A stretch of 64,000 nucleotides of DNA from Candidatus Omnitrophota bacterium (GCA_022711115.1 JAKLFP010000008.1:6617-70616); one strand, 5' to 3'. Shown: positions 1 through 22,195, counted from the first letter of the stretch. Translations and numbers: made by a program. The notes: generated by a model from the letters alone, not told the origin.

Positions 1-43
1 TTTTCAGATTATTGAGTTTCCCATCACCGGCTACGCGGGACCG

Positions 44-3000
44 GTGAATGAAATTACTTTCGTGGTGGATTATGGCACCGTAGGGTCGAACAAGAGCGGC
101 ACTTTCAGTGTGACCGATCTTTATTTCTTTTCGCCGCCACGCTCAGAAATGCGAAGCAGTATTCCTGAGAAGGAAAAACCGTTAGAAAAGATCCCGGTGG
201 GGATGGAAACCAAATTGGAACGGGTTCAAAAAATCGCGATCTACTTGATGCGTGTTTCTTTCCTGTTTTTGCTTGGTCGTTTGTATTTGGATATGGTTGG
301 AAAAAGCGGCAACCCTTTTATTGACATGCCTCTAAAGATCCCGATATGGCTGTCGGTGAGCGGAATTGCTTTTGGATATATTTTTTCGGCTATTCTGTTT
401 TTTTTAATCAAGAAGCATGTTGGGGAGGAATGGAGTAGCGGCACCCAGCAGTTGATTTCAGAGAAAAAGAGCCAGGATCCCATCATTTCAGAGACAGAAA
501 AAGACAATGCCGGTCAAGCCCCTGCTGATTTTTTGAAAAAACAGGACGAATCTACCCCGAGCGAACGATCGGAGATCAGAATAGCACTGAATAAAAATAC
601 GAAAATCCCGGATATCGCAAAGGCGCTGACCGGTTTGCCGGGATTGGAAGGCAAAGACAAAAGGCGAGCCGTTGCCAGGAAGATTCTGGAGGTAGCGACA
701 ACGGCAGGGGATAAACTCATCATTGCGGATCTTCAAAAAATCAAGGAATTGGCTGGTATTGCAACCGCGGAGCTTGAAAAGCGTTTTCATATAACACAAG
801 CTGCGCCGCGTGCGCCGCCGCTATCTAAAAAAACAGTTCCTCAAAAGAATTTTCTTTCTTTTAAAACCATGATCATCCCGGTTGCTTTGGCCGCAGGGGT
901 GACTGCCGCGGTTTGGCTTTGGAACACTTATTCTCCGATCGCCCGGGCGTATCAAACCCTTCTTGAATACAAAAATCAGGTCCCGCCGATTCCGTCTACG
1001 ATCACACGTCCCGGAGCCGAACATCATTCCATTCGTTGGCATGGGGCCCGCATGGAAGTCATCGGCGGGGCACACGGTTCAGACGTCGGCGTCGCAGCGC
1101 TCCTGAAACTAAGTAAAAATGAAATCATGCCTCATCCCAAGAAGTGGGTGCTGGTGACGGAAGGGTTGCTGGATGCGCAAAAAAACGGCAAAGAGGTTCT
1201 TGTCCCTGATATCCGGATTGCAGACTACCTCAATCGTACGTTCAATATTCCGGTCGAAGACGTGATCCCGGTTTTGGGCGATCCTGAGGTTGTGGAGATC
1301 CTCATGAAAAAGACAGGACTTCCCAGAGAAGAAATCTTGGTTGCGGACATGTTCCCTCGCTTTCATGATTTTCTCAGCATGACGGCCAAATTGCTTGCGG
1401 CTAAAGGGGTGGGGCCGGATCGAGGGCCCTCCTTCGATCAAATATTTGCCGCCTTTCTCGAAACAGTTCGAGTCCTTTATCAGATGCCCGAGCCTGAAAT
1501 ACGAAGGATTCTTTTAAAGGCCGCAAACGATGCGTCAAATTCGAATGAAGTCTTGGAGAAATTTTACGGACAGATCAATCTTGTGCGCGTCGAAATGCTG
1601 AAAGCGCGGAATGAAATTGCTGCCCAAAGACTGAAAGCCTTGGTGGTCAAATACCCCGGCAAAAATTTTGTCGTCATGATCGGCGCACTTCATTTACCAG
1701 TTGTCGGTTTAAAAAGCGACTCATTCACAACCGATGTCCGCCTTCCATCCCAATCCGATATCCAGTGGCTTGCCAATGACATTATCACTCACTCCCGTTC
1801 TGAGATGCGCTCGGAACCTGTTGCGCCAGGTGCTCCCCGGGCTCGCTCCGAGTTGAAAACAGAATCGGATAAGTTTACGAAGGCGATGAAGCGGGTTGAG
1901 GTATTGGGGAATAAGCTGACAACCCTTATCTCTTTTCGGGAGGACGGTCCTGGTGTAAAAAAATTAGAACAATTAGTAGAAGAAAATTTTTTCTCGCGCA
2001 GAACAAATTTTTTACGTTCCGAATTGCGAATGAACATAAAACCTATTTCCGAAGATCCTTTTAGCAAAAATAGACAAGTCCATTCATCGCGCCGCCAATG
2101 GTTGTTTCGAATGGGCGCCGGGGCAATTTTATTAAGCGCTGCTTGCTGGTTTACTGTGCGAAATATAAATTCAAAAAACAATAAAAAGAATCTTCCGTCA
2201 ACTTCAAAATCGATGAATTTACTAGGTCTTTATTTTGTAAACCATTCATCCTTTGATCAGATACAACCTGCTTTTGATAAAATGGATAGCGACATCGCTG
2301 AATATAAACGTATTCAAGCAGGCGATCCGGAGCTTGTATTTTTTCTGGAATATGTTCTATCAGAGGAGGGTTTAGTACAACTGGTCGAGCATTTCTCAGG
2401 GGTGAAAGCCAAAGATTTTGATGATTTGATTCAACAGCACAGAGAGTTAGTTGAAAAAAATTATAACAAACTGTTTTATGCCTTAAGCAATCAAGAATCA
2501 ATCGATAGATTTTTCAATGATACTAGCCAGGTTTTCGGTCAAATCGTTCAATCTTTGAGGAAAAAGTATGGGAAAAGAATCATATTTGTCGTAGAACGAG
2601 TTCCTTTTGAGGTGTGGCTTCGGTGTTGCAAGGCGCAACGCTTTCGAGAAATGGTGAGGTTGGATGAAAATGGAGATATTTCTAGAGAATGGCTCAAAAA
2701 TCATACATCTTATCTTCAGGAAAATGCCTTGGTTCAATTCCCGAGAGATGAAGCATTCAATGCATTCATGGTTGATGTGGGTACGAGAATTTTCCCTTCG
2801 GCTTTAAAATTTACCTTTCGTGGCCTCGGCCATCGGATCAATGAATCTCTTCTTGGAAGAAATATTAAGGATTTTCGCCCCGAAGATATCAGCGCGGACT
2901 ATATAGTACGTGAGATCGAGCAGCGCATACGAGACGGGGCGGACCTATCGTCAGCTTTGACCATGGCAAGTTACTACAATGACAATTTTGCTTCTTCCGC

Positions 3001-6000
3001 AACTGCTATCAGCGACATACGCACTTTCAACTTAGTGACTAACGAGTTTCAAAAAAATCTACTGAATTTGGCAAATGAAAGCCCTCAGGCGATAAAAAAA
3101 ATTCTTATTGAAAGTGTAAGCATTGATAAGGATATGCAGCATGAATCATCATTGATCGGGAAAGAAATTATTGCTTTAGAGACCTCAATTACGCAAAAAA
3201 CAGCAAGTGGACAAATGGTTGTTGCTGAAGATATTAAGAGATTTTCGCAATTAGAAGGTGAGTTTTGGAAAATTTATGTTGCGGGTAATGAGCGGCTTTT
3301 AGGGCTTAGTAGAAAGTACAATCTGATCTCACAAAAAAATTACAATCTTCTTCTCGAAGCCAATCGGCAATTGTATGCAAAGAGGAAAGTAGAAATTTTT
3401 TCTAAATTGGAGGCAGATCTTCCGATGGGTATTCGACAGCAATTACCCCGCTCGGAGATGAGAGCGGCCCAGGAGAAGAGCGAAACAGCGGTTGTGATCA
3501 GCCGGTTCAGGATTGATTTTTCGGATGCCCGGGAGCTCCAGAAAGATCTGGAAAAAATCGGTATTGCGGCCCAAGCGCCCGACGCAGAGTACATCCAATT
3601 TAAAGGACAGGACAAAGCGGTCGCCATTTCTGATTTTCAAGCCCTTGTGCTTGCCGCAGAAAAAGCCTTTGGCGGAAAACTCAATATCAGCGTTAAAAAA
3701 GACCCCGGAAGCGGGAAAAATATTTTATATGCGCATCGAGGAAAATATCCTCTCGCGGCTTCAAGCGCCGAAGAACTTATCATAACGCTCAACCGTGTTA
3801 TTTCCGCGGTCGATCTTTCCAAGACAGCTTATCTCACGCACAGCCTTGACATCACACTTCCCAAAAATCCGGCCCATCCGCTGGTCCGGGAACTAGCGGG
3901 ATGGGTGAATCATCCTGGAACCCTGGCCCAAAAAGTTCCGGATACGGATATGCGCAAGGTTCTTTTGGGCGCGATGATCCGGGAACACGCGGAGCTGGTT
4001 TTGTTAGACGCTTTTGGATTTGACGCAAAAACCATCGGGACTATCAGAAAAGAATTTACCCAAAAACAGCCTGTGACAGCTGAGAAATTGTTGCGGTTTA
4101 TTCACCGCACCAGCATGAAAAAAACCGATGCCCTTATGATATGGGTTAAAAAATACGGTCCGAGCCTTGTGCGGGCCGTCATTAATCCACTGATCCCTTT
4201 TTATGGTGTTTTAGGCGATGTGCTGGGCGAAGTCGGGCGGGGGATTGCGGATGAAAGTTCAGGATTTCTGGAAAAAGAAAGGGATGAAGCCGTCGTCCAG
4301 GAATTAACTCTCTGGCCTGTTCTGATTCGAACCTTTGTGGAACTGGTACCGGAAAAGATTCCAATGGAGGCTGCGGGTTTCCCTCCCAAAGTGATTCAAG
4401 AGCTCAAAGGCTTAAAAGATCCCATTGTCACCATGGCAGGTTTGGATGATCTTGTGAATGGACCGCGGTTTAAAGACTTAAAAGCAGCCACGCAACAAGG
4501 GATTTTAACTTGTCTTTTGAGTGTGATCCCGCAATTAGTCTCGCTCGAGGCGATCGGCGTTCATCCCAAAATCGAAGAGGAGCTTGGAGGAATCAGGATA
4601 AACGGCTTTATTGAAGATGGTATTCGGAATGTGAATGAACTTATAGACGCTTTTGGAAATCCTGAAAAATTCCGATTGATGGAATTACCTCCCACAACCG
4701 TTCGAAATCTTCTCCTCGCTTTATTGTATGCTTATCCCAGACATACTCTAGCTTCCCTTGTCGCACCTTATGCGGGATCTCTGACCGCGGGAGACTTGAT
4801 TGCTTATTTGGCTCCGGAACCTGTGAAAGAGTTTTTGTTTCCCGTGCTCAGACCGGTTTGGAATTCAACCTTGGATGAACTGAAAGCCAAATTTATGGGA
4901 GCAGAAGCGAGTATCCGCTCAGAGATGAGGTCCACTGATGCTATCACGCTAGATCTGACGCAGGAGAAAGGACACCGGGGTGTGGTGGAGCTTCCGGGAG
5001 GTATGGAAGGGCGGATCGATTTCGGATCGGGCGGTATGTATACCGCCAAGGAGCTGAGCGGGATCTACCTGACGTTTAAGAGAGACCCGAAGGGTGCGGT
5101 GCGTGTCCAAATTATTCAAAATGGGAATGTTAAACGACAAACGATCTTGCCGGGCAAAACGGGACGGGTCATTGAGATCCAGGGCCCCATGCATTTCGAC
5201 GAAAAGGTCCGTTTTGTATTCAAAAATGAACCAAATTCTTTTTTTATCAGCACCAACTCTCATTGGAATACCACACTTCATTATTGGCATGCAACGGGTA
5301 AATTTCAGGAAAGTTCCGGGGTTTTTCAGACTCCAGATATTCCGGGAAAGGTTCTTAGTAAAAAGGATAATGTTTCCACAGGCCTGAAATCCCTTGGCGC
5401 TTTCAAACGACTGTTTTTGAATTTAGCCTTGGGATTTAATATTTATGCGGTAGGTTGGTGGATTCACGCTTTCTGGGATCGTAGGCAGTCGGCTATTTTA
5501 TCCAGCCCGGTTCTAGAAATGAGTAAGGAGACGGCAGCGGTAGGCTGGTTGACGGTGGGGTTGGGGACTTTGTCGATCGGCATTTTATCATTTATCCTGT
5601 ACAAGGATTTTCGCAACAGTTGGCTGATTTCCCGGTTTAAGATTCCCAAGCGTGAAGCCGGCGAATCACCCCGCGTTCCGCCTTCCCGGTCCGAAGTGCG
5701 CATGGATCATCCGGAACATCTCCAGCTAAAGGTCCGTGCGATCGCGCCGGCTTTGCGGATACCTTCTTCAAAAACGGGAAGCGGCGAATTGACACTTTTA
5801 CGGCTGGCCCAGCGGGGATTTACCCCCGCTGAATTTGAGGCAGCCATTGTTTCAGGACAACCTCCCGAAGCAGCGGTTGCCGCATTGCACGGTCTGCGTC
5901 ACCCAGAGCACTATTGGCAAGCTTTGAGAGTTTTCTTTGTGCGCGCGGCACTGCTCCATGCCGTGTCATGGCTAAGTGGAGGGCGTGAACCTTCTGTCGA

Positions 6001-9000
6001 AACGATCCTGGAAGCGTACTTGGTATTACGCCGGGAAGGCAGAAGCGATCAAGAGATCTTTGAGTTTTTAGTCAGAAGACTTAATAACAACAAAGTGAAA
6101 GAAAAATTACAAGCAACCCTTAAGATTACTGCCGCCCAAGTGATCCGTGAAGCTATCGAGGCTCGAGTCTGGGTGCCTGAGTTTTTGGAGTGGGAACAAA
6201 AGCTTCGAGCGGTCGTGCAGGATGATTTTTTTACGGGGATGCTTGAGGCTCAATATGCGCCCGGAGATTTTCAAACAGCGGCAGAAACCGCCTTGCGACA
6301 GCCCCAGGGAGAATTTGCGCGTTCTTTTCAGCAAAGCTTTGAAGCTCTCGGCATCAAGGATGTTCCAAACGCCGGAATCCTCAATGTATTGCGCGCCTAT
6401 TATTTGAAGGCTTATCTCGCGCATCAAAAGATTTCAACGGATGAAAACGGTACGGAGCAGCCGCTGCTTGGCGGCCAAACGCTTGAACGCGGTTTGATCG
6501 TTCGAATTTATGCCGATCTCCGGAGCGAAGGAAAGAACGATCAGCAGGTTTATGAATTTTTGGAATTAGCATTGCGCACGCAGAAAAAAGCCATCGCATC
6601 CGGACAAAAAAGCATCGCTGTAGTTATTGAAGAAGCACTTAAAGCCCGTTCGGAAGTGCGTAGCAACTTCCGCACTGAGAGGAGCGGTTTTCAAACCGCT
6701 CCCGTACGTGCCGAAATGCGTGTTGCTGCCGAAGCTCGTTCTGAGTTGAGATCGGAACAGCCGGATCGGGAAAAGGCCTTTATTACAAGGGTTCTTGAGG
6801 CGGCTAGAGAGTTCGGTTTTTCAGGGCCTGCGGCGTTGGCTATTTTAATGAAAAGCATCCGGCCCGAACAGCCTGCCAGGAAACAAGCACAGGCGGTCAG
6901 GCAGGTGAGTATTGAATTTCCTATGAATACGCCCCTACCGGAAGCCTATCAGAAATGGCTGAGGGGAGAAGCCAATGAGCCGGAACATGTTTTGATTCTG
7001 AAACGCGAGGATGCCAAAACGCCGGCATTTGTACTAAAACGGGAGAACGGAAAAACCCGGGATTTTTATTTCGATACCTTCGGGCACAACAACATTCTTC
7101 TGATCCCTTATTCCACTCCGCAGACCGGAGAAGTTGGGTTCCAGATATTCCTGACAGCCCTGCCGGTAACTTCTCAACCCGTGAAGATCCGTGATCTGAG
7201 CTTGAATAAAGATCAGATGATCGGCGGGATCCAGGTCAAAGATCAAAGGACCTTTTTACCGGAGCCGAAGCTTTGGCGTGCGGCGAAAGGTTCTGCGACC
7301 GCGGGCCGTGTCGGAGCATACCAGTTTTCCGATCTTCTCAGCCGGCGCGAAGGAGCCGCTTTTGAGCGTTTGATGCTTATCGCGCTTCATGCGTTGACAA
7401 CAGGACAGATACGCTCACAGCAGTCACTTTCGACCGACCCGCTGCTTGCCACTTATGTGCAGCCGGACATGATCGTAACACTTCATGATAGGCGACAGAT
7501 CCTGGACGCAAAACGGGGCAAGGGGTTTGAAAATATCGCTAAATCGATCATGAAATATTTACTCGCGCGAGACCTGAACCCGGATGTCTTGGATGCCGGT
7601 GTGCCGATCGGGATAGTGGCTTTGAGCAGCCAGGAAATGGAAAACATCCGGAACAGTTTTTCACAATTTGAAGAAGGAAAAGATTATGAATTGATCCTCG
7701 CGGATGACCTGGTCAGTGAACTGGCTACGATGTTTCCAACCCATCAGAGGATCGGCGGAGAGCAAGGGCTTACCGTGGAAGAGATCCGGCAGAAACTCGG
7801 ATATTTACGACATGAAGGTGCGGGCGAACCGACCGAGGAGACCCTTGCGGCCGAGATCACGATGTTGAATGTCATCATCGGAAATCTGCAAATCCCTTCC
7901 AATGGCAAAAAGCCGGTCAAGACGGTGAAAGAATTAATCGAGATCGGAAAGACAAATCCTGACGAATTACTTGGTTATGTGCGGCAGACAGAGAGTCGGA
8001 TGGACCGGTTCGGAGAGCGTCCTCTTTACACGCAGGAACAACTGGTAGTGCTCCAGGTGAATCTTACGGAGATACAAGCTGCATTGAACGCCGTTACGGG
8101 AGATGCGGAATGGATCCGGGAACATCTTGCGGAGCATGAAAAGCTCAGGGAAATCCTTGCTGTGATCGACGCGTTGATCTCCAAGATCGCACGTCGAATC
8201 AATCTACCGGCCGCTGCAGTTGCTTCGAGAGAACGGCCGGGCATCAAAGTCGCATCCTTGGCATCAAAAGAACCAGTCAATCAACTTATAGCGGAACCCT
8301 TAAAAGCAACCGTACCTACCACAGCTGAGATGAAAACGCTCAGTGAATCTCCAAAACAACCCGTAGCACCGGCACAAGCGATTGAAACTCAACCAGCGCC
8401 ATTGCCGGCCGAAGCGATTGCAACCAAAGCAGAAGTAACGGCAGCCCCTGCACTGGTGGCTCCTAAGCCTGAAACCGTTGCTAAACCTGAAAAACCTTCG
8501 AAACCAAAAGCACCGCGACCTGCACGCGAACAACCGCAGGGCAAATATGAAAGCAAAGTCAATCTTCATTTGTTGGAACCCGGAACGAGCGTTTACGAAT
8601 CTGTTTTTGGGACTCATCAACAACCCAAAGAACCCCTGGATGCGGTCGGTGCGCTTTCAAAACTTTTACGTGTCTGGACCAAGCGGTTGAAGCCGGAACA
8701 GGACGGTATTCTCATCCGGGTCCAGCCCAGGAATCGTCAAGCAGCCAGACAGTGGGAAGAACTTGGAGCAAGATCGCTCCGTCAGCATTTTGGAAACAGG
8801 ATCGCAGATAGTCTTTCCTCACAGACGATCCACTTGGAGGGGATCCGCGGTGAAAGTCCTCAGGGTGTCTCAGCGATCAGAATCCCTATATCAGAACCGT
8901 TGGACATTCCGGGATTGCCGGAAGGGCTAGATGCCATTCACTTAGTGGAGGGGACGGGGCAGGGTTTCGCCTACCTGATGCGCAATACGCCTCATTTTAG

Positions 9001-12000
9001 GCTGGTCTATGAAAGGATTCAAAAACCGACTTTTAATTTTAATGACTTCCAGTTCCTTATCAGTCTGATACGCACAGGGGAACTAAGAGTTCTGGAATTG
9101 CCTGCCTATGGTTTCTTTACAGCTGAAGATATGACCTCTTTCATCATGAATGCGGATCTTCCCCAAGACATTGGCGCATTTCTTGTCTCTGAAGAAGAAG
9201 CGCGCATGATTCATGAAAAGAAAATGAAGTCCGCGCTGAAAAAACAAAAATCAGACTTGGTCGCTGCGATCACACAGGAAGTTGCAGCGGCCAGGAAAAA
9301 ACTCGAAACAGCTCTTGATTCCAAACGGTTAGCGCCTGGCGCTTTGGTAAAACTTGATGCGGCACAGGTCAAAGCGATTGAGGCCAAGATCGCTGAACTT
9401 GATGCCTTGAAGATCGTTGAAGAGCTTTTTGCCATCCGTTCAGAACTCCGGGGTGATAAGCAGGGAATTTCGCTGGAAGATGCCAGGCAGGCGCTGGCAG
9501 AGAAAAAAGCTGTGATCGAAGCTCAAATCAATGCGTTAAAACTTGTCGGGACCGAGCTTGAGCTTTTTGTACATCAGGCGGAGACATTGATCAAAAAGGG
9601 TGATCAAACCGCCATGAATAACTGGGAATATCCCAAAGTGCTTCATTATCAGGAGATCCGGAAGCTCACTCCGTCGGATCCGGTCATCCAGAGGTTAAAT
9701 GATCTGACGCTTTCGATGATCCTTGAGTTTAACGAGAAAAAGGATAGCGTTAGCGGTGATTTTCTGGCCCTTATGTACGGTATGATGGCCGTAATCTCAG
9801 CGATCTCGATCGCGAATGAAAAATCATTCTTTATCGAACCTGTGGCAACGGTCCTCAAGACAAGCGATCTTTCCGGGCTTGAGTTGCTTTTACATGCTAC
9901 CGTCCAGTTGCTGCCTCTGATGACACTAAGCGTGAGCGGAGGCACCCTCCTGACCGCGCTCTGCCTCTCTTCGGAGCAATATGCCCATGACCGCCGCTTC
10001 AAAAATTTCGTTCACAACTTCGCGGAAATGGAAATGAAGGCAAAATTTCAAAACAAGGGCATCATAAAGTCTGATCAGCATCGGAGGTATTTAGCGAGGC
10101 CGGAGGTCATGGCAGAAGCAGTGGCAATAGCCGAAACCGAATACCGTAAAGCTGAAAAACCGTCCGCCCAGTTGGTCGTGGATTTTCTTATGGGGCATCT
10201 TGCTGCCAATGCCAACGTGGAAGCTATGATGCACGCAATGGCTGGTCGCGTTCATGAAGCGATCAGCGCGTCTGAAAAAATCACTATCACAATTGATCCA
10301 AGGCGGAATTACGAATATGCCCGCGAGTGGTTTGAGAAGACGCAGCGCGCCGACCCCAACTATCCGCTCTGGGGCCGCGAACTTTTAAAAGATCAAACAA
10401 CAGAGAACCGGGGATCTCTTACCGCTCAGCTTTCCGGCGTGCCTCTTCATAAGCGGATCTTCTCGGCATTGTTGCGTGTCCCCATAAGGGCGGACAATGA
10501 ATCGTGTGGTGTTTTGGCAGGTGCTTTGGATATTTTCTTTGAAGTTCTGATGAACGAGGAAAATCATTTTGGTCAATCTGCCGGATTGCATTCGAAAGTT
10601 TCAAAGTTTTCTGCAGAACATAAGGTCTTGAGAACATTTGTTGAAAAGACTATTGCCAAGGGGAACCCGAACTATGCGGATGTCGAGGCATTCAGAAAGA
10701 GGATGGCGGCATGGCTGGAATTAGCCGAAGAGATTATTGGCGCGCCTGAATTTTCAGGGGATAAAGAAAAAATAGCTCGACAGCTTTTGAAGGTCCGCAA
10801 GGCCTTTACAGATTGGTTTGCGAAGCATCAAATACCATTTGCGAGGATCCCAGAAAATCCAGCAACCGGGAACCAAGAATACATCGTGGTCGCGATGAGA
10901 GAAGAAAAAAGCGGCCGTGTTTTCGTCGGCGTGCCATCTGCGACAGATTTCGGCAAGGAAGTAAACTCGGCAGCGGCAGAAGTCTCTTCGGCGGAAGTCC
11001 CGGTGATATTCATGGACCGCGATATTTCCTCTTTGATGATCGAAAAAGGATTAACCGTGATTGCCATGCCGCGGGATTCATTTATGGCCGGCCGAGATAC
11101 CGAGATGGTGGTGTTTCCGCAGTCCTTGTCTGGCGCCACCCTTGAATCTATCAAGTTGGATTTACAGCCTGCTAACAAAAGCTTAGCCGTGACAGCTCTT
11201 GAGAATGCGCGGGCGCATCTGTTGGAAATACAGATCGAAGCATTCAAGCGGTCCATGGAGTTTTTTAGGCAGGCATACGAAATGCTGCAAAATGAATCTG
11301 AAGGTCATCCAGCATCACGAGAAGATGAGCTCACGCGGTCATTTGAGCGTTTGGAAAAACTCTGGGAACAAGTGTCGCAATCGAAACCTGCCAGTGGCAA
11401 ATCTGTCGTGCCCTTTCTTGAGGAAGTCGAGACGCACAGGAAGACCTTGATCGGGATCCTTCAATCCGGCGTTGTATCCAGAGGAAAAGGGGAGCGTTTT
11501 CTTCAGGATTGGGCTCACCATTCAGCCTCAGATTATCAGTTTATTTTTCCGAAAGTAATCACAAGAGAAGACCAACGGTTCGGTGTTATAGGCTTTTTAG
11601 ATGCGGCAGGCGATTATTATGCCGCTTCCCGCGAAGCGAGTAACCGTTATGTTTATATCAACACAGCACATCCTGGTTCAAAGCCTCTGCGTTTCAGAGG
11701 CGGTATTCAGGAAATCATGTTGTCAGGCGGAAGATTAGTATTGGGCCGACTGGATACGATGAAGGCCGTGGGAGAAAAAGAAACCGCGGTGATCATGGTC
11801 GCGCAAGTGGAAGGGAACGCGCCGATAGCAACACGCGTTTTGAACGCATTTTTGGATACGTCCTTGACGCTGGATACAGAGTCCGGTCTGCTCCGTGAAA
11901 CCAATATTTCTCTCGTTCAAGCTATGGAAATTCTCCGGAAGACAGCTGTCGCACCGGATCAGCGCGAAGCGTTTCAAACCGATTTAATGCTTGTTCAAGT

Positions 12001-15000
12001 CAGCTATGATGGCTTCAACGAAGCGCTTCTGGCTGCCTTGGGGCAGGGGACGGTCCCGTACCGGGAAATGGTCAAGTTGTTCGAAAAAATGGCCTCGCTT
12101 CAAAGTGATTTTGAAACCATCCAGGAACGAAATCCTTCTATTAATAAGCAACAGCTTAATGTTTTTGCGAAGGCCGCTTTGGAAAAGTTTCTTGAGTGGT
12201 CCAGAAAACAAAGGGTTCCATTCATGGGGTTAGTATCCGGCGCTGAAGGGAAAAACATCAATCTGGTTATCGGGTTTTTAGGGCGGGATGGAACGCTTTA
12301 TATCGCAACCCAGGAATCGCACAGGTTCCGGGAAGTGACGGACCGCGCGGACGCGAAAACTGTTTCTTTTGACAATCTTCCTTCCTTTGTGAGAGACGAG
12401 GGAATGAGCATTCTTGCGATTCCCCAGTCTGCGCTACTTGAGCCTCGTCCCGAATATATTGTTTTTTATCCAGCGGTAGAATTGTTGCCGAGCCAGGCTC
12501 TTGCTTCCGATATCCCGATTTCTTCTGAGTCTGCAGCGCAAAAATCAGAACCAAAGTCCGTGGTTTTTCCGTGGGATGAAATGGAACTGGTTCCTGCCGC
12601 TCCGGAACATTCGCAAGCCGTATATGAGGCGTTCTATAAGAAGCAGACTTTCGCTGTAGACAAGGAAGTTGCGCTTGAAGGTCTCCCAATTGCAGAGAAA
12701 GTGCTCGCTCAGCTACGAAGAATGCATGCAACACAAAGGGATCCCTTTTTCAGAGCCGCTACTAAAGGATTTGAGCTTATGGTCCAAGCTCTTAGAACCG
12801 CTGCCGAAACAGGAAGGCTTTCTGTAAAACTTAGCAACCAATGCCGGACAGAATTAGAACCTCTTTATTCAGCTAAAAATGTGGATGACATGCATAAGGC
12901 TTCGGCTTTGAAATTCCTGCTGCCGTTTGCTGAATTTTGGAAGGATCACCAGGATGCTCTCATAAAGCGCGTCCAGGGTATCAATTATCGCGATCAAGAA
13001 AGCGAGCTTTATCATTTACAAGGGGTGTTAGGTGAGGATGGGAAACTTTATACGACGACTGATGCTATGGATACATTTGTTGAAATTACGGATGCAGCAG
13101 AAAAGAAAACAATCAGCTTGCCGGGAAGACAAGGACTTTTGAAAGCCCTCCAAGAAGGCAAGGCATTGATATTGGAAATCCATAACCCCATGTTGAAACC
13201 AGAGGAAATGGAAGCCCGGCTTACAAACCTTCTCATGCTTCGCTTTAAAAATTCTCCCGCCCGTTCCGAGGTGCGGGGAACATTGACACAGCAATTTCCA
13301 CTTGGAACCATCGAATTTGAATTTTTAATGCTCCATTTTCTCACGAAACTTTCGGAAGATACCGGCTACGATTCCGAAATCAGAGGAGACATTTTTGACC
13401 CGCCAGAGGTCTGGGGGAAGGTGACTGCAGAGGAGATGGACAACGCTGTCGACAAACTGGTAAGAGCGCATCCAGCGGGTATAGCCGGCGAAGAACAAGT
13501 TTCGCCCGTTTCATATCTTTTTGATCAAACCGGCATACTGGTTTTTGACAGAGCTTCTTTTTTGGCGGCTTTCGATAAGATGATTAACACGGAATTTTTT
13601 GACGACCTCATGGAAATGGCCGAGGGATTTGAACAGGCCTTCGACGATTTCGAGTTGGAAGATCCTCGTTTTAACGTCATCAAAGCCTATAAAGCAGCCG
13701 CAGAACGAATTCTCTATTTTAAATATCACCGCTCTGAGGTGCGGATTGATGAAGCAAAAATCAAACAGATCGTTGATGAACTGCTCGAAGGCGACATTCT
13801 GATGCAACCGGTTGACGTTACAAACTATATTCTCCGTCTCGGACCTTATTCCTCGCCCAAAGCCGGTGAAGTTTTGAAAAGCGTGTTTAAGAAATACGGC
13901 CTTCCGGAAGAAGGAAGCGGCCGTAGCTTGCCACCCGGTTCACCTGAAATGAAATTATCTTTCGCGATCCTCAATGAAATGATCGAAAGACATAGGAAAA
14001 GCTGGAACGTCGAACCGCCAGGGGGAGAAACTCAGACGCAAGGTCCCGCCCGCTCCGAAATACGTGTCCAAACATCCGATGTCAAATCGCCGGTCAGATT
14101 TAAGGACCTTATGGGCAGCTCATCGGTGAAAAGTTCGCCGATTCCCTCTCAAGACACACTTCTCATACAAGTTGGGAAATACCTGCAAGGTCTTCCGGAA
14201 GCAGATTTGAATGATATCTTGCACTCTCACGGGATCATGTTCCCGGAGGGTGTTCGCGCTCGTTTATTGAAAGGGTTTAAGGATTCAACACTCAAACAAA
14301 CTCTCCTTGCGAAGTTCGGGCAAACACTTAACCAAAGGGGAGTGATTGGGCTTGCGGTCAGCAAAGATTGGATCAAGCGGCTGACCAAAAGTGATAAAGA
14401 GTATCAGGTGGTTTGGGCCGGGAAAGACGGTAAGCTTTATCTTTTGAGAGAATTCTATGAATACTTGAACAACATTCCTAATGACGAGGAACGCGGAAAA
14501 GTCGCGGCGGCTTTGATCGTGCGTTTCCTTATTGCCAAGGAATTCCGTCAGATTTTGCGCGAAGAGGAAATGCCGCTTGAGGGTAAAATCCGGGAAAGCG
14601 TCAGAGCCGTTGAAGATTATGTGTATGCGGCTAGAGCCATCGCTCTTTCAGAATCACAGGTTGATCTTCGTGTCCGTGGTTTTGTCTATTTACAGATGTA
14701 TGAAAGAAAAGAGCGTTTTACGAGATATGCGGTTCCGCGCGTTGATTGGGGATCCAGAATCATTCGTCTCGAAACATTATTAGGGCGACTGTATACGCTC
14801 CGGGATCTTCTGGATACTCAGAAAGTAGTCAAAACAGAAGATCGCGAAACTTTAAAAGATATTGATGAATCCTACAAGCTGGACAAGGATACGGAAGTTC
14901 TCATTCGCGAAAACCTCCAAGGTAAATCCATAGAGCAACTCGAGGAATTCCAGAAGCAATTTTCCGATTCCTATCTGAAGATCAAAAGCGGTATTGCCAC

Positions 15001-17092
15001 GGCGGTCAGGAAATACCGGGAAGGCAAGATCACAGAGGAAGCCTATGAAGAAACGAAAGCGCGTCTGAACCGGCTAGCCAATATCAGGCTGAATAAAGTC
15101 ATCAAGCTTGAGTTTGTGCTTATGATGAAACTACTCGATAACCGACGCTCCATTCGGAAAGTGCTGGATTCTCTGGTCGGTCACTTCGAAGAAAAAGAGC
15201 GAGAGCTTAAATGGCAAAGAATTCGGGAACTTCAAAAACGTAATGTTACGGAAGTGTTTGTGCGCAGCGCCTCCGACGATTACTTAAAAGTCAAATTGCT
15301 TAAAGATCTTGTGAGCCGACAGCGTGCGACTACCGGAGCCATCGAAAGAATCGAAAGCCGTTGGAATCAGCAAGAAACTTATTATTTAGCAACCATCAAG
15401 CAATTGTTCACAGCGTTGATTGATCATGAAAGCGCCGTTACCCAAAATCCAGCTCTTTGGAAAACGAAACTTTTAGATTATTTCAGGATGCGAAAAGTCG
15501 ATTTTAAAGGGAAATCCGATTCAGCAATCGGTGTGAACGATATTGCCGCAGCACTCTATTTGCGTCCCGATGTTGCTCAGGATGTTTTCTTGAGGATCAA
15601 GGCGTGGACGCGTCAAAAAACGGTAAAGGAACAAGAGGAACGAGTCAAAGTGGTCAGCCAACTTGTTCGTGATCTTATCCCGGATGAGGCGAAACACAAG
15701 GAAGGTCTTGAGAGGATCAAATACCGCAATCTTTTCAATTTCTTCCGTTCGCGGGATCATGTAGTTGCCAATTATGATACTGAGCACCGGAGAGCATGGG
15801 AAGCTATCGGATTTCTGACCGATTTAAAATTGCAATTACGCCACTATAAGAAAGAAGCGATTCCGTCATATAAAGTACGTAGTGCTCAACGCGATTTGAG
15901 GCAAGTTACCGATTGGGTGGAACATGGCAAAGTAAGTGAAAAAACTCGCATTAGGGAATTGATGCGGGTGGCTCAGGAAAATCTACAACTTGGGCAATAT
16001 GCGGTAACGATTTCGAAAGTGGAAGAAGCTCAGAGTATTCTGGAAAATGATTTCCTGGTCAGGATTGAGCGTATGAGCCGATTTGTTGCGCGCCACAAGG
16101 AATCCGTAAATTCTGAACTTGGAGCGCCGTTATCTATGATTCGAGCGGGAATCAAACACCGGGATCAAAGAGAATTTAAGAAAGCACTGACAGCATTGAC
16201 CCGCTTTCAGCATCGAAATATTGAAGGTTATACGGCGACCGAAGAAGAACCGGGTTACATACGCGCCAAAACTCGTTTTACTGTCATGATCAAGGCGCTT
16301 GAGAAACCCTTCGCAGAGAATAGACCAGTGAATCCTGCGGATCTCAGAGTAGTTCTCACGAATCTTTACCGCGTGCGCTATGACATCCAGCATAAATATG
16401 AAAAAATCGCAGAAATCGGAACGGAGGCCGACAAAATCAATCAAGAAGTCACGGCCAAGGTCACCCAAGATCTTGCTCTGGCTCGCTCTGAGATGAGGGA
16501 ACAACTACCAGGTGAAGGGCGAATTTCACCGGCATCAAGACCCGGTCTTGAACTTCGGGAGGCATCCGAACCCACGATCAATGTCAATACGATCTCAAAT
16601 ATCCAGGAACCGGTGGTGTTTGTGATTGAGCAGGCGAAGATTGATCAGCTGACGCCGGAGATGTTCAAGGAACTCCTGGCGCTTGCGGCGATCAATAAAG
16701 AAAGACTTCATGTCGTGATCCCTGATGCGTTGCAGGGGAAGTTCAGCGCCCGTGTCGGGGAACTCAAAACAATTGCCCATGTTTATTACGGGAATTTGCC
16801 GGAGGTCGCGAAATCACAAAAAGTCAAAGTGATTGGTTTTTCGCAGTCGGATGAAAATGTTGAGATCTTGAAGGCCCGATTTGGAGAAAGAATTGCGGGA
16901 CGGACTTCAGCTTATTTTACGACGGAGCAAACGGGAAGCTTCGCGGTCGCGTTGCTTTACGCGATCCAGAACATCAAACGGGAACAATTGAAAGTGAAGA
17001 ACGGCTACTTTTACGATGGGACAGGTTGGCTGACGAGCCGTGCACTTGAAATCCTCTGGAATTCCTATACGGTTATCTCCTCGGCAGCATAA
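44..17092 (+). CDS. giant membrane-associated protein of unknown function (>=5682 aa; 5' end probably upstream of window)
   Basis: One uninterrupted ORF of 17 kb in frame 2. The same frame has no stop from nt 2 to the first in-frame start (GTG at 44), so the N-terminus may lie outside the window. Hydrophobic helix-like stretches at about nt 233-290, 338-415, 868-935, 2098-2160, 5395-5480 and 5533-5605. 15 in-frame copies of the R-S-E-[MVIL]-R motif. P/A/K-rich low-complexity linker at about nt 8290-8545. All antisense ORFs inside it are short. I cannot name any domain from the sequence. Confidence 0.8.
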   Translation: MNEITFVVDYGTVGSNKSGTFSVTDLYFFSPPRSEMRSSIPEKEKPLEKIPVGMETKLERVQKIAIYLMRVSFLFLLGRLYLDMVGKSGNPFIDMPLKIPIWLSVSGIAFGYIFSAILFFLIKKHVGEEWSSGTQQLISEKKSQDPIISETEKDNAGQAPADFLKKQDESTPSERSEIRIALNKNTKIPDIAKALTGLPGLEGKDKRRAVARKILEVATTAGDKLIIADLQKIKELAGIATAELEKRFHITQAAPRAPPLSKKTVPQKNFLSFKTMIIPVALAAGVTAAVWLWNTYSPIARAYQTLLEYKNQVPPIPSTITRPGAEHHSIRWHGARMEVIGGAHGSDVGVAALLKLSKNEIMPHPKKWVLVTEGLLDAQKNGKEVLVPDIRIADYLNRTFNIPVEDVIPVLGDPEVVEILMKKTGLPREEILVADMFPRFHDFLSMTAKLLAAKGVGPDRGPSFDQIFAAFLETVRVLYQMPEPEIRRILLKAANDASNSNEVLEKFYGQINLVRVEMLKARNEIAAQRLKALVVKYPGKNFVVMIGALHLPVVGLKSDSFTTDVRLPSQSDIQWLANDIITHSRSEMRSEPVAPGAPRARSELKTESDKFTKAMKRVEVLGNKLTTLISFREDGPGVKKLEQLVEENFFSRRTNFLRSELRMNIKPISEDPFSKNRQVHSSRRQWLFRMGAGAILLSAACWFTVRNINSKNNKKNLPSTSKSMNLLGLYFVNHSSFDQIQPAFDKMDSDIAEYKRIQAGDPELVFFLEYVLSEEGLVQLVEHFSGVKAKDFDDLIQQHRELVEKNYNKLFYALSNQESIDRFFNDTSQVFGQIVQSLRKKYGKRIIFVVERVPFEVWLRCCKAQRFREMVRLDENGDISREWLKNHTSYLQENALVQFPRDEAFNAFMVDVGTRIFPSALKFTFRGLGHRINESLLGRNIKDFRPEDISADYIVREIEQRIRDGADLSSALTMASYYNDNFASSATAISDIRTFNLVTNEFQKNLLNLANESPQAIKKILIESVSIDKDMQHESSLIGKEIIALETSITQKTASGQMVVAEDIKRFSQLEGEFWKIYVAGNERLLGLSRKYNLISQKNYNLLLEANRQLYAKRKVEIFSKLEADLPMGIRQQLPRSEMRAAQEKSETAVVISRFRIDFSDARELQKDLEKIGIAAQAPDAEYIQFKGQDKAVAISDFQALVLAAEKAFGGKLNISVKKDPGSGKNILYAHRGKYPLAASSAEELIITLNRVISAVDLSKTAYLTHSLDITLPKNPAHPLVRELAGWVNHPGTLAQKVPDTDMRKVLLGAMIREHAELVLLDAFGFDAKTIGTIRKEFTQKQPVTAEKLLRFIHRTSMKKTDALMIWVKKYGPSLVRAVINPLIPFYGVLGDVLGEVGRGIADESSGFLEKERDEAVVQELTLWPVLIRTFVELVPEKIPMEAAGFPPKVIQELKGLKDPIVTMAGLDDLVNGPRFKDLKAATQQGILTCLLSVIPQLVSLEAIGVHPKIEEELGGIRINGFIEDGIRNVNELIDAFGNPEKFRLMELPPTTVRNLLLALLYAYPRHTLASLVAPYAGSLTAGDLIAYLAPEPVKEFLFPVLRPVWNSTLDELKAKFMGAEASIRSEMRSTDAITLDLTQEKGHRGVVELPGGMEGRIDFGSGGMYTAKELSGIYLTFKRDPKGAVRVQIIQNGNVKRQTILPGKTGRVIEIQGPMHFDEKVRFVFKNEPNSFFISTNSHWNTTLHYWHATGKFQESSGVFQTPDIPGKVLSKKDNVSTGLKSLGAFKRLFLNLALGFNIYAVGWWIHAFWDRRQSAILSSPVLEMSKETAAVGWLTVGLGTLSIGILSFILYKDFRNSWLISRFKIPKREAGESPRVPPSRSEVRMDHPEHLQLKVRAIAPALRIPSSKTGSGELTLLRLAQRGFTPAEFEAAIVSGQPPEAAVAALHGLRHPEHYWQALRVFFVRAALLHAVSWLSGGREPSVETILEAYLVLRREGRSDQEIFEFLVRRLNNNKVKEKLQATLKITAAQVIREAIEARVWVPEFLEWEQKLRAVVQDDFFTGMLEAQYAPGDFQTAAETALRQPQGEFARSFQQSFEALGIKDVPNAGILNVLRAYYLKAYLAHQKISTDENGTEQPLLGGQTLERGLIVRIYADLRSEGKNDQQVYEFLELALRTQKKAIASGQKSIAVVIEEALKARSEVRSNFRTERSGFQTAPVRAEMRVAAEARSELRSEQPDREKAFITRVLEAAREFGFSGPAALAILMKSIRPEQPARKQAQAVRQVSIEFPMNTPLPEAYQKWLRGEANEPEHVLILKREDAKTPAFVLKRENGKTRDFYFDTFGHNNILLIPYSTPQTGEVGFQIFLTALPVTSQPVKIRDLSLNKDQMIGGIQVKDQRTFLPEPKLWRAAKGSATAGRVGAYQFSDLLSRREGAAFERLMLIALHALTTGQIRSQQSLSTDPLLATYVQPDMIVTLHDRRQILDAKRGKGFENIAKSIMKYLLARDLNPDVLDAGVPIGIVALSSQEMENIRNSFSQFEEGKDYELILADDLVSELATMFPTHQRIGGEQGLTVEEIRQKLGYLRHEGAGEPTEETLAAEITMLNVIIGNLQIPSNGKKPVKTVKELIEIGKTNPDELLGYVRQTESRMDRFGERPLYTQEQLVVLQVNLTEIQAALNAVTGDAEWIREHLAEHEKLREILAVIDALISKIARRINLPAAAVASRERPGIKVASLASKEPVNQLIAEPLKATVPTTAEMKTLSESPKQPVAPAQAIETQPAPLPAEAIATKAEVTAAPALVAPKPETVAKPEKPSKPKAPRPAREQPQGKYESKVNLHLLEPGTSVYESVFGTHQQPKEPLDAVGALSKLLRVWTKRLKPEQDGILIRVQPRNRQAARQWEELGARSLRQHFGNRIADSLSSQTIHLEGIRGESPQGVSAIRIPISEPLDIPGLPEGLDAIHLVEGTGQGFAYLMRNTPHFRLVYERIQKPTFNFNDFQFLISLIRTGELRVLELPAYGFFTAEDMTSFIMNADLPQDIGAFLVSEEEARMIHEKKMKSALKKQKSDLVAAITQEVAAARKKLETALDSKRLAPGALVKLDAAQVKAIEAKIAELDALKIVEELFAIRSELRGDKQGISLEDARQALAEKKAVIEAQINALKLVGTELELFVHQAETLIKKGDQTAMNNWEYPKVLHYQEIRKLTPSDPVIQRLNDLTLSMILEFNEKKDSVSGDFLALMYGMMAVISAISIANEKSFFIEPVATVLKTSDLSGLELLLHATVQLLPLMTLSVSGGTLLTALCLSSEQYAHDRRFKNFVHNFAEMEMKAKFQNKGIIKSDQHRRYLARPEVMAEAVAIAETEYRKAEKPSAQLVVDFLMGHLAANANVEAMMHAMAGRVHEAISASEKITITIDPRRNYEYAREWFEKTQRADPNYPLWGRELLKDQTTENRGSLTAQLSGVPLHKRIFSALLRVPIRADNESCGVLAGALDIFFEVLMNEENHFGQSAGLHSKVSKFSAEHKVLRTFVEKTIAKGNPNYADVEAFRKRMAAWLELAEEIIGAPEFSGDKEKIARQLLKVRKAFTDWFAKHQIPFARIPENPATGNQEYIVVAMREEKSGRVFVGVPSATDFGKEVNSAAAEVSSAEVPVIFMDRDISSLMIEKGLTVIAMPRDSFMAGRDTEMVVFPQSLSGATLESIKLDLQPANKSLAVTALENARAHLLEIQIEAFKRSMEFFRQAYEMLQNESEGHPASREDELTRSFERLEKLWEQVSQSKPASGKSVVPFLEEVETHRKTLIGILQSGVVSRGKGERFLQDWAHHSASDYQFIFPKVITREDQRFGVIGFLDAAGDYYAASREASNRYVYINTAHPGSKPLRFRGGIQEIMLSGGRLVLGRLDTMKAVGEKETAVIMVAQVEGNAPIATRVLNAFLDTSLTLDTESGLLRETNISLVQAMEILRKTAVAPDQREAFQTDLMLVQVSYDGFNEALLAALGQGTVPYREMVKLFEKMASLQSDFETIQERNPSINKQQLNVFAKAALEKFLEWSRKQRVPFMGLVSGAEGKNINLVIGFLGRDGTLYIATQESHRFREVTDRADAKTVSFDNLPSFVRDEGMSILAIPQSALLEPRPEYIVFYPAVELLPSQALASDIPISSESAAQKSEPKSVVFPWDEMELVPAAPEHSQAVYEAFYKKQTFAVDKEVALEGLPIAEKVLAQLRRMHATQRDPFFRAATKGFELMVQALRTAAETGRLSVKLSNQCRTELEPLYSAKNVDDMHKASALKFLLPFAEFWKDHQDALIKRVQGINYRDQESELYHLQGVLGEDGKLYTTTDAMDTFVEITDAAEKKTISLPGRQGLLKALQEGKALILEIHNPMLKPEEMEARLTNLLMLRFKNSPARSEVRGTLTQQFPLGTIEFEFLMLHFLTKLSEDTGYDSEIRGDIFDPPEVWGKVTAEEMDNAVDKLVRAHPAGIAGEEQVSPVSYLFDQTGILVFDRASFLAAFDKMINTEFFDDLMEMAEGFEQAFDDFELEDPRFNVIKAYKAAAERILYFKYHRSEVRIDEAKIKQIVDELLEGDILMQPVDVTNYILRLGPYSSPKAGEVLKSVFKKYGLPEEGSGRSLPPGSPEMKLSFAILNEMIERHRKSWNVEPPGGETQTQGPARSEIRVQTSDVKSPVRFKDLMGSSSVKSSPIPSQDTLLIQVGKYLQGLPEADLNDILHSHGIMFPEGVRARLLKGFKDSTLKQTLLAKFGQTLNQRGVIGLAVSKDWIKRLTKSDKEYQVVWAGKDGKLYLLREFYEYLNNIPNDEERGKVAAALIVRFLIAKEFRQILREEEMPLEGKIRESVRAVEDYVYAARAIALSESQVDLRVRGFVYLQMYERKERFTRYAVPRVDWGSRIIRLETLLGRLYTLRDLLDTQKVVKTEDRETLKDIDESYKLDKDTEVLIRENLQGKSIEQLEEFQKQFSDSYLKIKSGIATAVRKYREGKITEEAYEETKARLNRLANIRLNKVIKLEFVLMMKLLDNRRSIRKVLDSLVGHFEEKERELKWQRIRELQKRNVTEVFVRSASDDYLKVKLLKDLVSRQRATTGAIERIESRWNQQETYYLATIKQLFTALIDHESAVTQNPALWKTKLLDYFRMRKVDFKGKSDSAIGVNDIAAALYLRPDVAQDVFLRIKAWTRQKTVKEQEERVKVVSQLVRDLIPDEAKHKEGLERIKYRNLFNFFRSRDHVVANYDTEHRRAWEAIGFLTDLKLQLRHYKKEAIPSYKVRSAQRDLRQVTDWVEHGKVSEKTRIRELMRVAQENLQLGQYAVTISKVEEAQSILENDFLVRIERMSRFVARHKESVNSELGAPLSMIRAGIKHRDQREFKKALTALTRFQHRNIEGYTATEEEPGYIRAKTRFTVMIKALEKPFAENRPVNPADLRVVLTNLYRVRYDIQHKYEKIAEIGTEADKINQEVTAKVTQDLALARSEMREQLPGEGRISPASRPGLELREASEPTINVNTISNIQEPVVFVIEQAKIDQLTPEMFKELLALAAINKERLHVVIPDALQGKFSARVGELKTIAHVYYGNLPEVAKSQKVKVIGFSQSDENVEILKARFGERIAGRTSAYFTTEQTGSFAVALLYAIQNIKREQLKVKNGYFYDGTGWLTSRALEILWNSYTVISSAA

Positions 17093-21597: not shown

Positions 21598-22185
21598 ATG
21601 AAGCATTTGATCGTTTACAGTCATCCGAATCCGGCGAGTTTTAACCACGCCATTCAAGAAACGCTAGTGCGTGTCTTGAAAGAAAAAGGACACCATGTTC
21701 GCGTACGGGACCTTTATGCGCTTCGGTTTGATCCCGTGCTTCGGGGAGACGAGTTGAAGCTGCTTCAGGAGAACCAATCCGTGTCCCGCGATACTGCGAT
21801 CGAACAAGAGCATGTACGCTGGGCCGATCAGATCACTTTCATTTATCCGGTCTGGTGGGGCCGGATGCCGGCTATGACCTGCGGCTATTTTGACCGTGTT
21901 TTCAGCAAGGGGTTTGCTTATGATTATGGCCCGGAGGGTCTTCAGAAATTATTGCCAGGAAAAAAAGTTTGTGCCATCAGCACCATGGGGGCACCGCTGT
22001 CCGCTTATGAGGATTCGGGCATGATGAAGAGTATGAAACAAACGATCGATGAAGAGAGTTTTCAATTTTGCGGTATGGTCTTGATCGAACACAAATATTT
22101 TGGTGCGGTCCCGACCGTTACGGATGAGGAAAGAAAAAAAATGCTCGGCGAAGTTGCTTCGATGGCGTCTGCTTGGCCGGTTTAA
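21598..22185 (+). CDS. flavodoxin-like fold NAD(P)H dehydrogenase (quinone)-family protein
   Basis: 195 aa. N-terminus LIVYSHPNPASFNHAI resembles NQO/MdaB-type flavodoxin-like reductases. RBS GGAGG upstream. Confidence 0.6.
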   Translation: MKHLIVYSHPNPASFNHAIQETLVRVLKEKGHHVRVRDLYALRFDPVLRGDELKLLQENQSVSRDTAIEQEHVRWADQITFIYPVWWGRMPAMTCGYFDRVFSKGFAYDYGPEGLQKLLPGKKVCAISTMGAPLSAYEDSGMMKSMKQTIDEESFQFCGMVLIEHKYFGAVPTVTDEERKKMLGEVASMASAWPV

Positions 22186-22195
22186 GGGAAAAACC

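Follow-up and report, generated by a model that had tools for sequence, protein, structure and literature searches.

The window analysed here, a stretch of 64,000 nucleotides (nt) from Candidatus Omnitrophota bacterium (GCA_022711115.1 JAKLFP010000008.1:6617-70616), opens inside a giant open reading frame (ORF) that occupies its first 17 kb. The encoded protein strings together, in linear order, at least 12 autonomous modules, several with their own hydrophobic anchor, and is neither a repeat adhesin nor a toxin. A pentapeptide, R-[S/A]-E-hydrophobic-R, recurs along the chain, and sequence comparison indicates that it coincides with the borders of shuffled modules in relatives from other Omnitrophota-type contigs, among them enzyme domains of cytoplasmic type (NUDIX, GNAT, receiver). 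We propose, as a reading with close to an even chance of being right, that the motif would be a site for sequence-specific processing and the giant ORF a polyprotein. Residues are numbered throughout with codon 1 as the first codon of frame 2, from nt 2 of the window.

The original prediction, made from the DNA alone, had found no motif to assign in this protein. The pentapeptide R-[SA]-E-[MVIL]-R overturns that view, as it is present in 15 copies (in the forms RSEMR, RSEVR, RSELR, RSEIR and RAEMR), whereas 20,000 shuffles average 0.082 copies and never exceed 3; there is in addition one RSELK. An unbiased count of 5-mers returns RSEMR, RSEVR and RSELR as the only ones to recur three times or more, the overlapping SEMRS aside. 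The motif is absent from the other 13,890 residues encoded in the window, and the other five reading frames are free of it except for one antisense match. With the other four positions fixed, positions 1, 3 and 5 show essentially no variation; Ala is accepted at position 4, where Met is the commonest residue (24 of 76 sites). Third codon positions and flanks vary, so the copies are not DNA repeats, and such an origin is ruled out. The flanks carry almost no information, and their enrichment in Q, P, S and T with depletion of aromatics and Cys marks them as linker-like sequence.

The same motif, scored with Ala also allowed at position 4 and Ala or Pro at position 2, occurs 3-15 times in each of the relatives P0002, P0006, P0007, P0010, P0011, P0012, P0013 and P0015, for which fewer than 0.3 copies are expected. 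Sites can be stacked: three motifs fall within 35 residues (2216-2250) and an RSEMR/RSELK pair lies at 599-619, while P0011 has a like cluster of RSEIR, RAEIR and RAEIR within 70 residues. Such stacking would mean either very short modules or redundant sites. A literature search with the pentapeptide strings returned no relevant paper, a result that leaves room for a description elsewhere.

The placement of the motif at module borders is supported by several comparisons: (i) the only region of the protein with database relatives, residues 188-603, is the interval between the motifs at 189 and 599; (ii) a BLAST block pairs residues 189-605 with P0002 116-522 and borders on the motif in both proteins, P0002 having copies at 116 and 516; (iii) the block that pairs residues 5495-5696 with P0012 3589-3802 and P0020 14-221 starts on a motif in both partners (at 3589 and 15); (iv) the NUDIX domain of P0007 (1209-1313), the GNAT domain of P0010 (1122-1226) and the receiver domain of P0011 (2497-2594) each sit inside one interval, bounded by motifs at 1139 and 1359, 1084 and 1289, and 2357 and 2642, respectively. 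A recurrent short candidate recognition sequence at module borders, as expected of a polyprotein, is present here.

The sequence that follows the motif can resemble a protein N-terminus. Several copies stand directly before a Met, or before a twin-arginine-like and hydrophobic stretch; in the window an RSELR is followed at once by MNIKP...HSSRRQWLFRMGAGAILLSAACW, and P0013 has three such cases. A transmembrane-like stretch starts 5-80 residues downstream of 14 of the 78 sites, as against 6.5% of random positions. Conversely, short proteins of 269-295 residues (P0005, P0008, P0016), which hold the core of the TIKI-like module described below, have no copy of the motif. At the locus L010 (GCA_049324575.1, JBMONI010000010.1, 2812-21134) the giant is split into genes of 1,126 and 4,359 codons separated by a 15-nt gap, and this boundary too is motif-free. 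A second giant gene lies 234 nt past the stop at L010, with an N-terminal stretch, from LLQDAHAIPD... onwards, that is identical by eye to that of the 1,126-residue gene product; this identity would reflect tandem duplication or else a repeat created in assembly.

Within the window the giant protein divides as follows (nt positions, strand, feature).

2..17092, plus strand: C-terminal part of the giant ORF, 5,696 codons and a stop; the true gene has at least 7,831 codons (identical ENA contig) or at least 10,152 codons (99.2% variant).
140..154, plus strand: RSEMR junction motif at residue 47, terminating a beta-rich upstream module (residues 1-46).
140..565, plus strand: module 47-188 with two hydrophobic helices (78-96, 118-140), homologous to P0010 562-729; the motif is equivalently placed in both.
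566..580, plus strand: RSEIR junction motif at residue 189.
566..1795, plus strand: module 189-598, made up of a helical head, a transmembrane helix (289-307) and the TIKI/TraB-like domain.
1016..1726, plus strand: predicted TIKI/TraB/erythromycin-esterase-type hydrolase domain, residues ~339-575, with conserved H358, W382, E387, G388, R536, N537, G561 and H564.
1796..1858, plus strand: RSEMR (residue 599) and the variant RSELK (residue 615) in a P/A-rich linker.
2015..3448, plus strand: module 672-1149, RSELR and, immediately after it, MNIKP...HSSRRQWLFRMGAGAILLSAACW, which resembles a twin-arginine signal or anchor (701-719); the remainder is without detectable relatives.
3449..4915, plus strand: module 1150-1638, RSEMR at its start; no detectable relatives.
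4916..5686, plus strand: module 1639-1895, RSEMR at its start; a beta-rich part, then two hydrophobic helices (1804-1822, 1847-1865).
5687..6646, plus strand: module 1896-2215, starting RSEVR|MDHPE.
6647..6751, plus strand: cluster of three motifs within 35 residues, RSEVR (2216), RAEMR (2236) and RSELR (2246).
6737..9436, plus strand: module or modules 2246-3145.
8279..8581, plus strand: P/A/K-rich low-complexity linker, residues ~2760-2860.
9437..13261, plus strand: module or modules 3146-4420, RSELR at the start; hydrophobic pair 3253-3271 and 3303-3321.
10619..13261, plus strand: cryptic diverged repeats with a unit of ~250 residues, residues 3540-4420, from Smith-Waterman comparison with shuffles.
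13262..16483, plus strand: modules 4421-4576, 4577-4683 and 4684-5494, each with RSEVR or RSEIR at its start (nt 13262, 13730 and 14051).
16484..17089, plus strand: conserved C-terminal module 5495-5696, RSEMR at its start, ending ...YTVISSAA.

The membrane association claimed for this protein in the original prediction is borne out. All the hydrophobic segments it listed are reproduced by Kyte-Doolittle analysis, its numbering differing by a shift of +14, with 19-residue means of 1.71 (residues 78-96), 2.11 (118-136), 1.84 (289-307), 1.56 (701-719), 1.24 (1804-1822) and 1.81 (1847-1865). Two more segments were found at 3253-3271 and 3303-3321, and the P/A/K-rich linker reported earlier is the one at ~2760-2860. 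Searches of Pfam and NCBIfam with ten overlapping tiles of 800 residues returned nothing above threshold, and RTX, cadherin, Ig and RHS repeats are lacking; the original prediction had likewise seen no obvious cadherin, Ig or RHS repeats. With phmmer, no module had a significant match among PDB sequences, and BLAST comparison of the giant protein with itself gave none at E <= 1e-3. The repeats at 3540-4420, each a helical part and a small 'G.LG(R/E)DG.LY' domain, emerge from Smith-Waterman comparison at z = 8.2 and 13.9 against shuffles; there is otherwise no tandem array of a recognisable repeat, and this distinguishes the protein from cadherin, Ig, hemagglutinin and RHS adhesins.

The claim that the protein has no recognisable domains holds at the level of family thresholds; it fails at the level of structure, where residues ~339-575 form a TIKI/TraB/Ere-type domain, and upstream of the window, where PfkB and NUDIX domains are on record. 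Exhaustive HMMER search of residues 1-1200 against 1.84 billion representatives gave 16 matches only, all to residues ~188-603. In an alignment of 12 homologues W382, E387, G388, N537, G561 and H564 are invariant and H358 and R536 nearly so, in the pattern G-x-x-H ... E-G ... R-N ... G-x-x-H; an acidic residue (E352) usually lies six residues before H358. AlphaFold2, run on the homologue alignment, models the module at a predicted local distance difference test score (pLDDT) of 88.8 and a predicted template-modelling score of 0.86. The core fold, a parallel beta-sheet with flanking helices, is that of the TIKI/TraB/Ere superfamily, and the nearest solved structures are TraB, HopBA1, PMT, ChaN, EreC and RRSP. 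PMT, HopBA1, ChaN and RRSP are all listed as members of the TIKI superfamily (PMC6254334).

From the conserved residues, the model and its structural neighbours we assign residues ~339-575 as a predicted TIKI/TraB/Ere-superfamily hydrolase domain that retains His/Glu/His and has its own transmembrane helix (289-307) ahead of it. Like the TIKI/TraB/PrgY/GumN/ChaN/erythromycin-esterase proteins, it has a G-x-x-H close to the first strand and a Glu past the strand that follows, then R-N and a second G-x-x-H. It differs in scoring below the Pfam threshold, in a large helical insertion, in the preceding transmembrane helix and in being embedded in a giant protein. TraB_PrgY_gumN is the one weak Pfam match (E = 0.026, and 0.0068 on the isolated module). 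Two results speak against the assignment: the PF01963 score of 16.7 bits compares with a gathering threshold of 26.8, only the C-terminal G-x-x-H region matching, and TM-scores to the solved structures are low, at 0.3-0.4. The profile of the module found no match among PDB sequences. Tiki and RRSP are endopeptidases that use His/Glu residues, RRSP being of the 2His/2Glu type (PMC6254334), and by analogy the module could be a putative peptidase, as in Tiki and RRSP, or an esterase, as in Ere.

The same module occurs in the giants P0001-P0004, P0006, P0007, P0011 and P0013, its position varies widely from giant to giant (residues 114, 737, 769, 1701, 2086, 2450 and 3279), and its core domain stands alone in the short proteins mentioned above. 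A second TIKI-like domain sought in residues 720-1149 was rejected at an hhalign probability of 0.3%.

Relatives that are intact at the N-terminus (P0013, L008, L010) share an architecture: a signal peptide and an 'IQDAH ... EG ... GGFH' domain come first, variable modules follow, and the conserved C-terminal module is last. A candidate kinship of the 'IQDAH...GGFH' domain with TIKI, as a paralogue, did not stand; the two align in register, but the hhalign probability is 1.2% and Pfam gives no match, so it is an unproven resemblance. The last 202 residues of the window protein (5495-5696) are homologous to the C-termini of P0012 and P0017-P0020 at 39-60% identity. AlphaFold2 models residues 5521-5696 at a moderate pLDDT of 70.5 as a generic Rossmann-like alpha/beta fold with no specific neighbour. 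Ten aligned C-termini (the window's ...YTVISSAA at 17069-17089, with P0006, P0011, P0012, P0013, P0015 and P0017-P0020) all end in Ala, typically as ...[VI]-x-x-[SA]-A, and two of them finish with the motif and three further residues, RAEIRKAA and RAEVRQSA. Non-polar 'AA' ends resemble the tails recognised by C-terminal processing proteases or ClpX. Neither the junction motif nor this arrangement of signal peptide, IQDAH domain and C-terminal cap is mentioned in the Omnitrophota giant-ORF literature searched, and either may have been described elsewhere.

Further homologue searches reached few sequences. The C-terminal 177 residues as query gave four short fragments only; a search with residues 1-1200 found no relative among 8,000 candidates, in an index that apparently does not reach proteins of this size; and the first 600 residues found none in genome and metagenome contigs. 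A four-sequence alignment as query located two loci in genome contigs and one in metagenome contigs.

We favour processing at the motif on three grounds: a strict motif recurs within unconserved linkers, neither a natural gene boundary nor the short core-domain proteins contain it, and N-terminus-like sequences follow it. During translation the chain would be inserted into the membrane or passed across it, and cuts at the motif junctions would release membrane-anchored and soluble pieces. The TIKI-type putative peptidase module of the giant itself would be one candidate processing enzyme. As the module is also found in motif-less relatives, its link to such a protease role is weak.

Four observations weigh against processing at the motif. 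First, the long inter-motif intervals of 900, 1,275 and 811 residues hold several domains or repeats, which implies that the motif does not stand at every domain border or that degenerate copies were missed. Second, the TIKI-like module is present in P0001, P0003 and P0004 (17,187 residues in total), all three of them motif-less; having the module thus does not entail having the motif, and module function does not require it. Third, all motif-bearing relatives except P0019 and P0020 were found through one module, an ascertainment bias. Fourth, over 66 sites in eight genes (drawn from the window gene, with 16 sites at 140-16498, and the loci L008, L009, L010, L012, L013 and L014), the first Arg is encoded by CGN at 65, where 15.8 AGR codons are expected, and the last Arg is AGR at 17, equal to background. 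A purely protein-level site does not predict this, and the CGN-only first Arg may hint at an extra layer at the RNA level.

Among the relatives, L007 (identical to P0002) is labelled Candidatus Omnitrophota, and the motif-less L006 is labelled Planctomycetia. In the motif-less part of P0003, residues 1668-3940, a near-identical transmembrane helix '...GLSGWWLAAGIGL...' occurs four times, each at the apparent start of a new module. Junction devices may differ between lineages.

The motif-less relatives keep the same modules, as would be expected if the giant stayed uncut as a membrane-tethered scaffold in which the pentapeptide is a conserved linker element, either a hinge or a docking site for a chaperone, insertase or modifying enzyme. 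A sharply defined motif in linkers would fit any sequence-specific binder. This explanation, the main rival and in our view the less likely of the two, is awkward for a chain in which modules of cytoplasmic type (NUDIX, GNAT, receiver, and a cytidylate-kinase-like P-loop stretch in P0013, read by eye) alternate with signal-like, twin-arginine-translocation-like and transmembrane segments. The short core-domain proteins and the natural gene split, all motif-free, suggest that the motif is needed only where modules are covalently joined, and no partner of such a scaffold is known.

The codon usage raises the alternative that the motif acts on nucleic acid, as an RNA processing or restart signal or as the fossil of gene boundaries, with modules made from internal starts. 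The fourth codon is ATG, GTG or TTG at 13 of 16 sites in the window gene (12 of the 15 strict ones), with GTG at all four Val and TTG at three of four Leu against background frequencies of 0.29 and 0.24; Met predominates at position 4, the first Arg is nearly always CGN, and Ser is TCN at 43 of 44 sites. None of the 16 sites, however, is preceded by a Shine-Dalgarno core, which 17 of the window's 26 real genes have. Among relatives, GCG, ATT, GCA, TTA, GTT, GTC and CTT all occur as the fourth codon, and Ala is accepted. Without a Shine-Dalgarno motif and with the NTG codon not conserved in relatives, internal translation starts were rejected. TCN-only Ser follows from the exchange of Ser, Ala and Pro at that position, and the NTG bias could have arisen by one-step changes from a preferred ATG. 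The Rfam scan of the window gave no family, and RNA cleavage would leave non-stop upstream fragments. We consider action at the nucleic-acid level improbable.

Processing of the protein, the reading we prefer, invites comparison with known systems of large multi-module chains. MARTX toxins, the looser parallel, are likewise very large single polypeptides with several unrelated effector modules, and their linkers are cut by an in-built protease. MARTX cleavage falls at Leu-X sites, whereas the junction here is a strict pentapeptide. The toxins can also carry a TIKI-superfamily module, RRSP (PMC6254334), which is among the structural neighbours of the window module. The window part of the giant differs in lacking RTX repeats and a cysteine protease domain (Pfam, NCBIfam) and in having many internal transmembrane helices. 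There are no type I secretion genes in the ~47 kb downstream within the window, and the modules resemble housekeeping-type enzymes, not host-directed toxins.

Viral polyproteins share the principle of independent units in one ORF with a short conserved recognition sequence at every junction. Polyvalent proteins of phages and conjugative elements reportedly also hold independent functional units in one ORF. The window gene differs from the viral case in being a chromosomal gene of a cellular organism with no viral context; a viral contig collection yielded no relatives, and processing is here inferred from sequence.

The gene itself is genuine, and its window part cannot be put down to an artefact of assembly. 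Frame 2 of the plus strand is free of stops from nt 2 to a single terminal stop (TAA/TAG) at 17090-17092, over 5,696 codons. From the first in-frame GTG the ORF spans 44..17092 (5,682 residues); as the 14 codons before it are equally open, this GTG is not the true start and the window edge cuts the gene. This upholds the earlier reading of one uninterrupted giant ORF with its start further upstream. The same locus was located in public assemblies by looking up the next gene (rubrerythrin), and the portion of the gene upstream of the window, 2,135-4,456 residues, is known from these public gene calls only. The ENA contig ERZ27257456:k141_97659 (166,675 bp) is 100% identical to window 7294-27881, and there the gene is called at 7,831 residues (23.5 kb); the upstream part of this call carries the Pfam matches to PfkB and NUDIX. 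The Logan contig ERR7850085_21446 (L002) is 99.24% identical, with a call of 10,152 residues (30.5 kb) that starts 38 nt from the contig end.

The discrepancy between these calls indicates that a break in the frame upstream of the window is present in one assembly and missing from the other; strain variation, an error in sequencing or a natural split would account for it. The 7,831-residue call begins well within its ENA contig (upstream region ~126,168-132,571 and beyond). This break is the one point in favour of a long ORF that is an artefact, whether a chimeric assembly, which the original prediction had named as a possible refutation, or a pseudogene open by chance. Independent assemblies (three from ENA, with JGI, Logan and NCBI; largest record 446,642 bp) carry identical sequence. 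Neither the 84 substitutions of the Logan variant (33 synonymous and 51 nonsynonymous) nor its two pairs of compensated +1/-1 indels, at 8450/8455 and 8580/8587, close the frame. A stop-free 17 kb at 48% GC is no chance event, and homologous modules and the motif are kept at the protein level in other organisms. The artefact explanation, to which we attach a negligible likelihood, is effectively refuted for the window part.

All 88 differences of the Logan variant fall within nt ~7300-9800, and 74 of them in nt 8001-9000, the kilobase with the P/A/K-rich linker; the other ~9 kb of the overlap, downstream genes included, has none. A hypervariable linker or a patch of recombination would account for this clustering.

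Nine downstream proteins match NCBI entries HOW58210.1-HOW58246.1 exactly ('MAG TPA ... [Candidatus Omnitrophota bacterium]'; MAG, metagenome-assembled genome). The gene therefore belongs to the known class of Omnitrophota giant ORFs and is no artefact, in keeping with the earlier suggestion that genes of this size cluster in a few lineages, Omnitrophota among them. The downstream genes are of the housekeeping kind, as first described: rubrerythrin, class II fructose-bisphosphate aldolase, GH57, acyl-CoA dehydrogenase and electron-transfer flavoprotein-ubiquinone oxidoreductase. Between the gene of a flavodoxin-like reductase and that of GH57, an ORF of 592-624 residues (window 22100-23974) includes the P-loop-like sequence 'GDTGAGKSE'; no Pfam family is recorded for this ORF. 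Rfam and tRNA scans found no rRNA, tRNA or Rfam family in the 64-kb window.

In most Omnitrophota classes giant ORFs above 20 kb are a common feature, described as poorly conserved and sparse in annotated domains (Seymour et al. 2023, PMC10066038), and later work has catalogued Omnitrophota proteins of at least 10,000 residues by the thousand. The gene is a member of this kind. It exceeds 20 kb, with 17.09 kb in the window and 23.5 or 30.5 kb by the public calls, and it combines 8-9 hydrophobic helices with no above-threshold Pfam or NCBIfam match and database relatives confined to one module. Phylum, a single ORF of tens of kb, scattered transmembrane helices, long stretches with few or no Pfam matches and poor conservation all agree. 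Both NUDIX and sugar-kinase-type domains are on record upstream of the window, and relatives tile unrelated enzyme domains on one chain; 'multi-enzyme metabolic cluster' and signal peptide plus transmembrane classes of Omnitrophota giants have been described (bioRxiv 10.64898/2026.06.07.730766). The earlier statement that the function is completely open was therefore too strong, as this kind of protein is already in the literature (PMC10066038; 10.1101/2023.11.21.568195; 10.64898/2026.06.07.730766).

Archaeovorins, defined in a size class of at least 30,000 residues (above 90 kb; West-Roberts et al. 2023, bioRxiv 10.1101/2023.11.21.568195), contain glycosyltransferases, methyltransferases, glycosyl hydrolases, peptidases and NUDIX, commonly with SecA_DEAD and a C39 or S8 peptidase. 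The window gene is far smaller, its longest call of 10,152 residues lying below that class. Its window part has none of the listed Pfam families, with NUDIX and PfkB on record upstream and one TIKI-type putative hydrolase in the window. Pfam finds no SecA_DEAD, C39, S8, glycosyltransferase, dockerin or TSP3 domain in this part, and it is unlike dockerin-type giants in that dockerin and TSP3 give no match even at E <= 1.

The gene is thus an ordinary member of its class, and the junction pentapeptide is statistically unambiguous and common to several lineages. Two questions remain on Omnitrophota giant ORFs: what they do, and whether the chain works whole or in pieces; one paper on them gives the cleavage points as unknown (among PMC10066038; 10.1101/2023.11.21.568195; 10.64898/2026.06.07.730766). 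It is possible, though on balance doubtful, that R-[S/A]-E-hydrophobic-R is the processing signal of one family of giant proteins in Omnitrophota, whose members would then be genuine polyproteins of bacteria, each an operon's worth of enzymes and membrane proteins made as one chain and cut at the pentapeptide by a dedicated protease, possibly one of their TIKI-type modules. If so, the motif would supply the missing cleavage points of giant proteins and a rule for dissecting them computationally. The motif makes the idea of cutting testable: it predicts the positions of neo-termini in metaproteomes, gives natural cut points for module-wise structure prediction and is simple enough to serve as a marker in surveys of long Omnitrophota proteins, of which thousands are on record. 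Were it not a cleavage site, the motif would still be a specific recognition element read by something in these cells.

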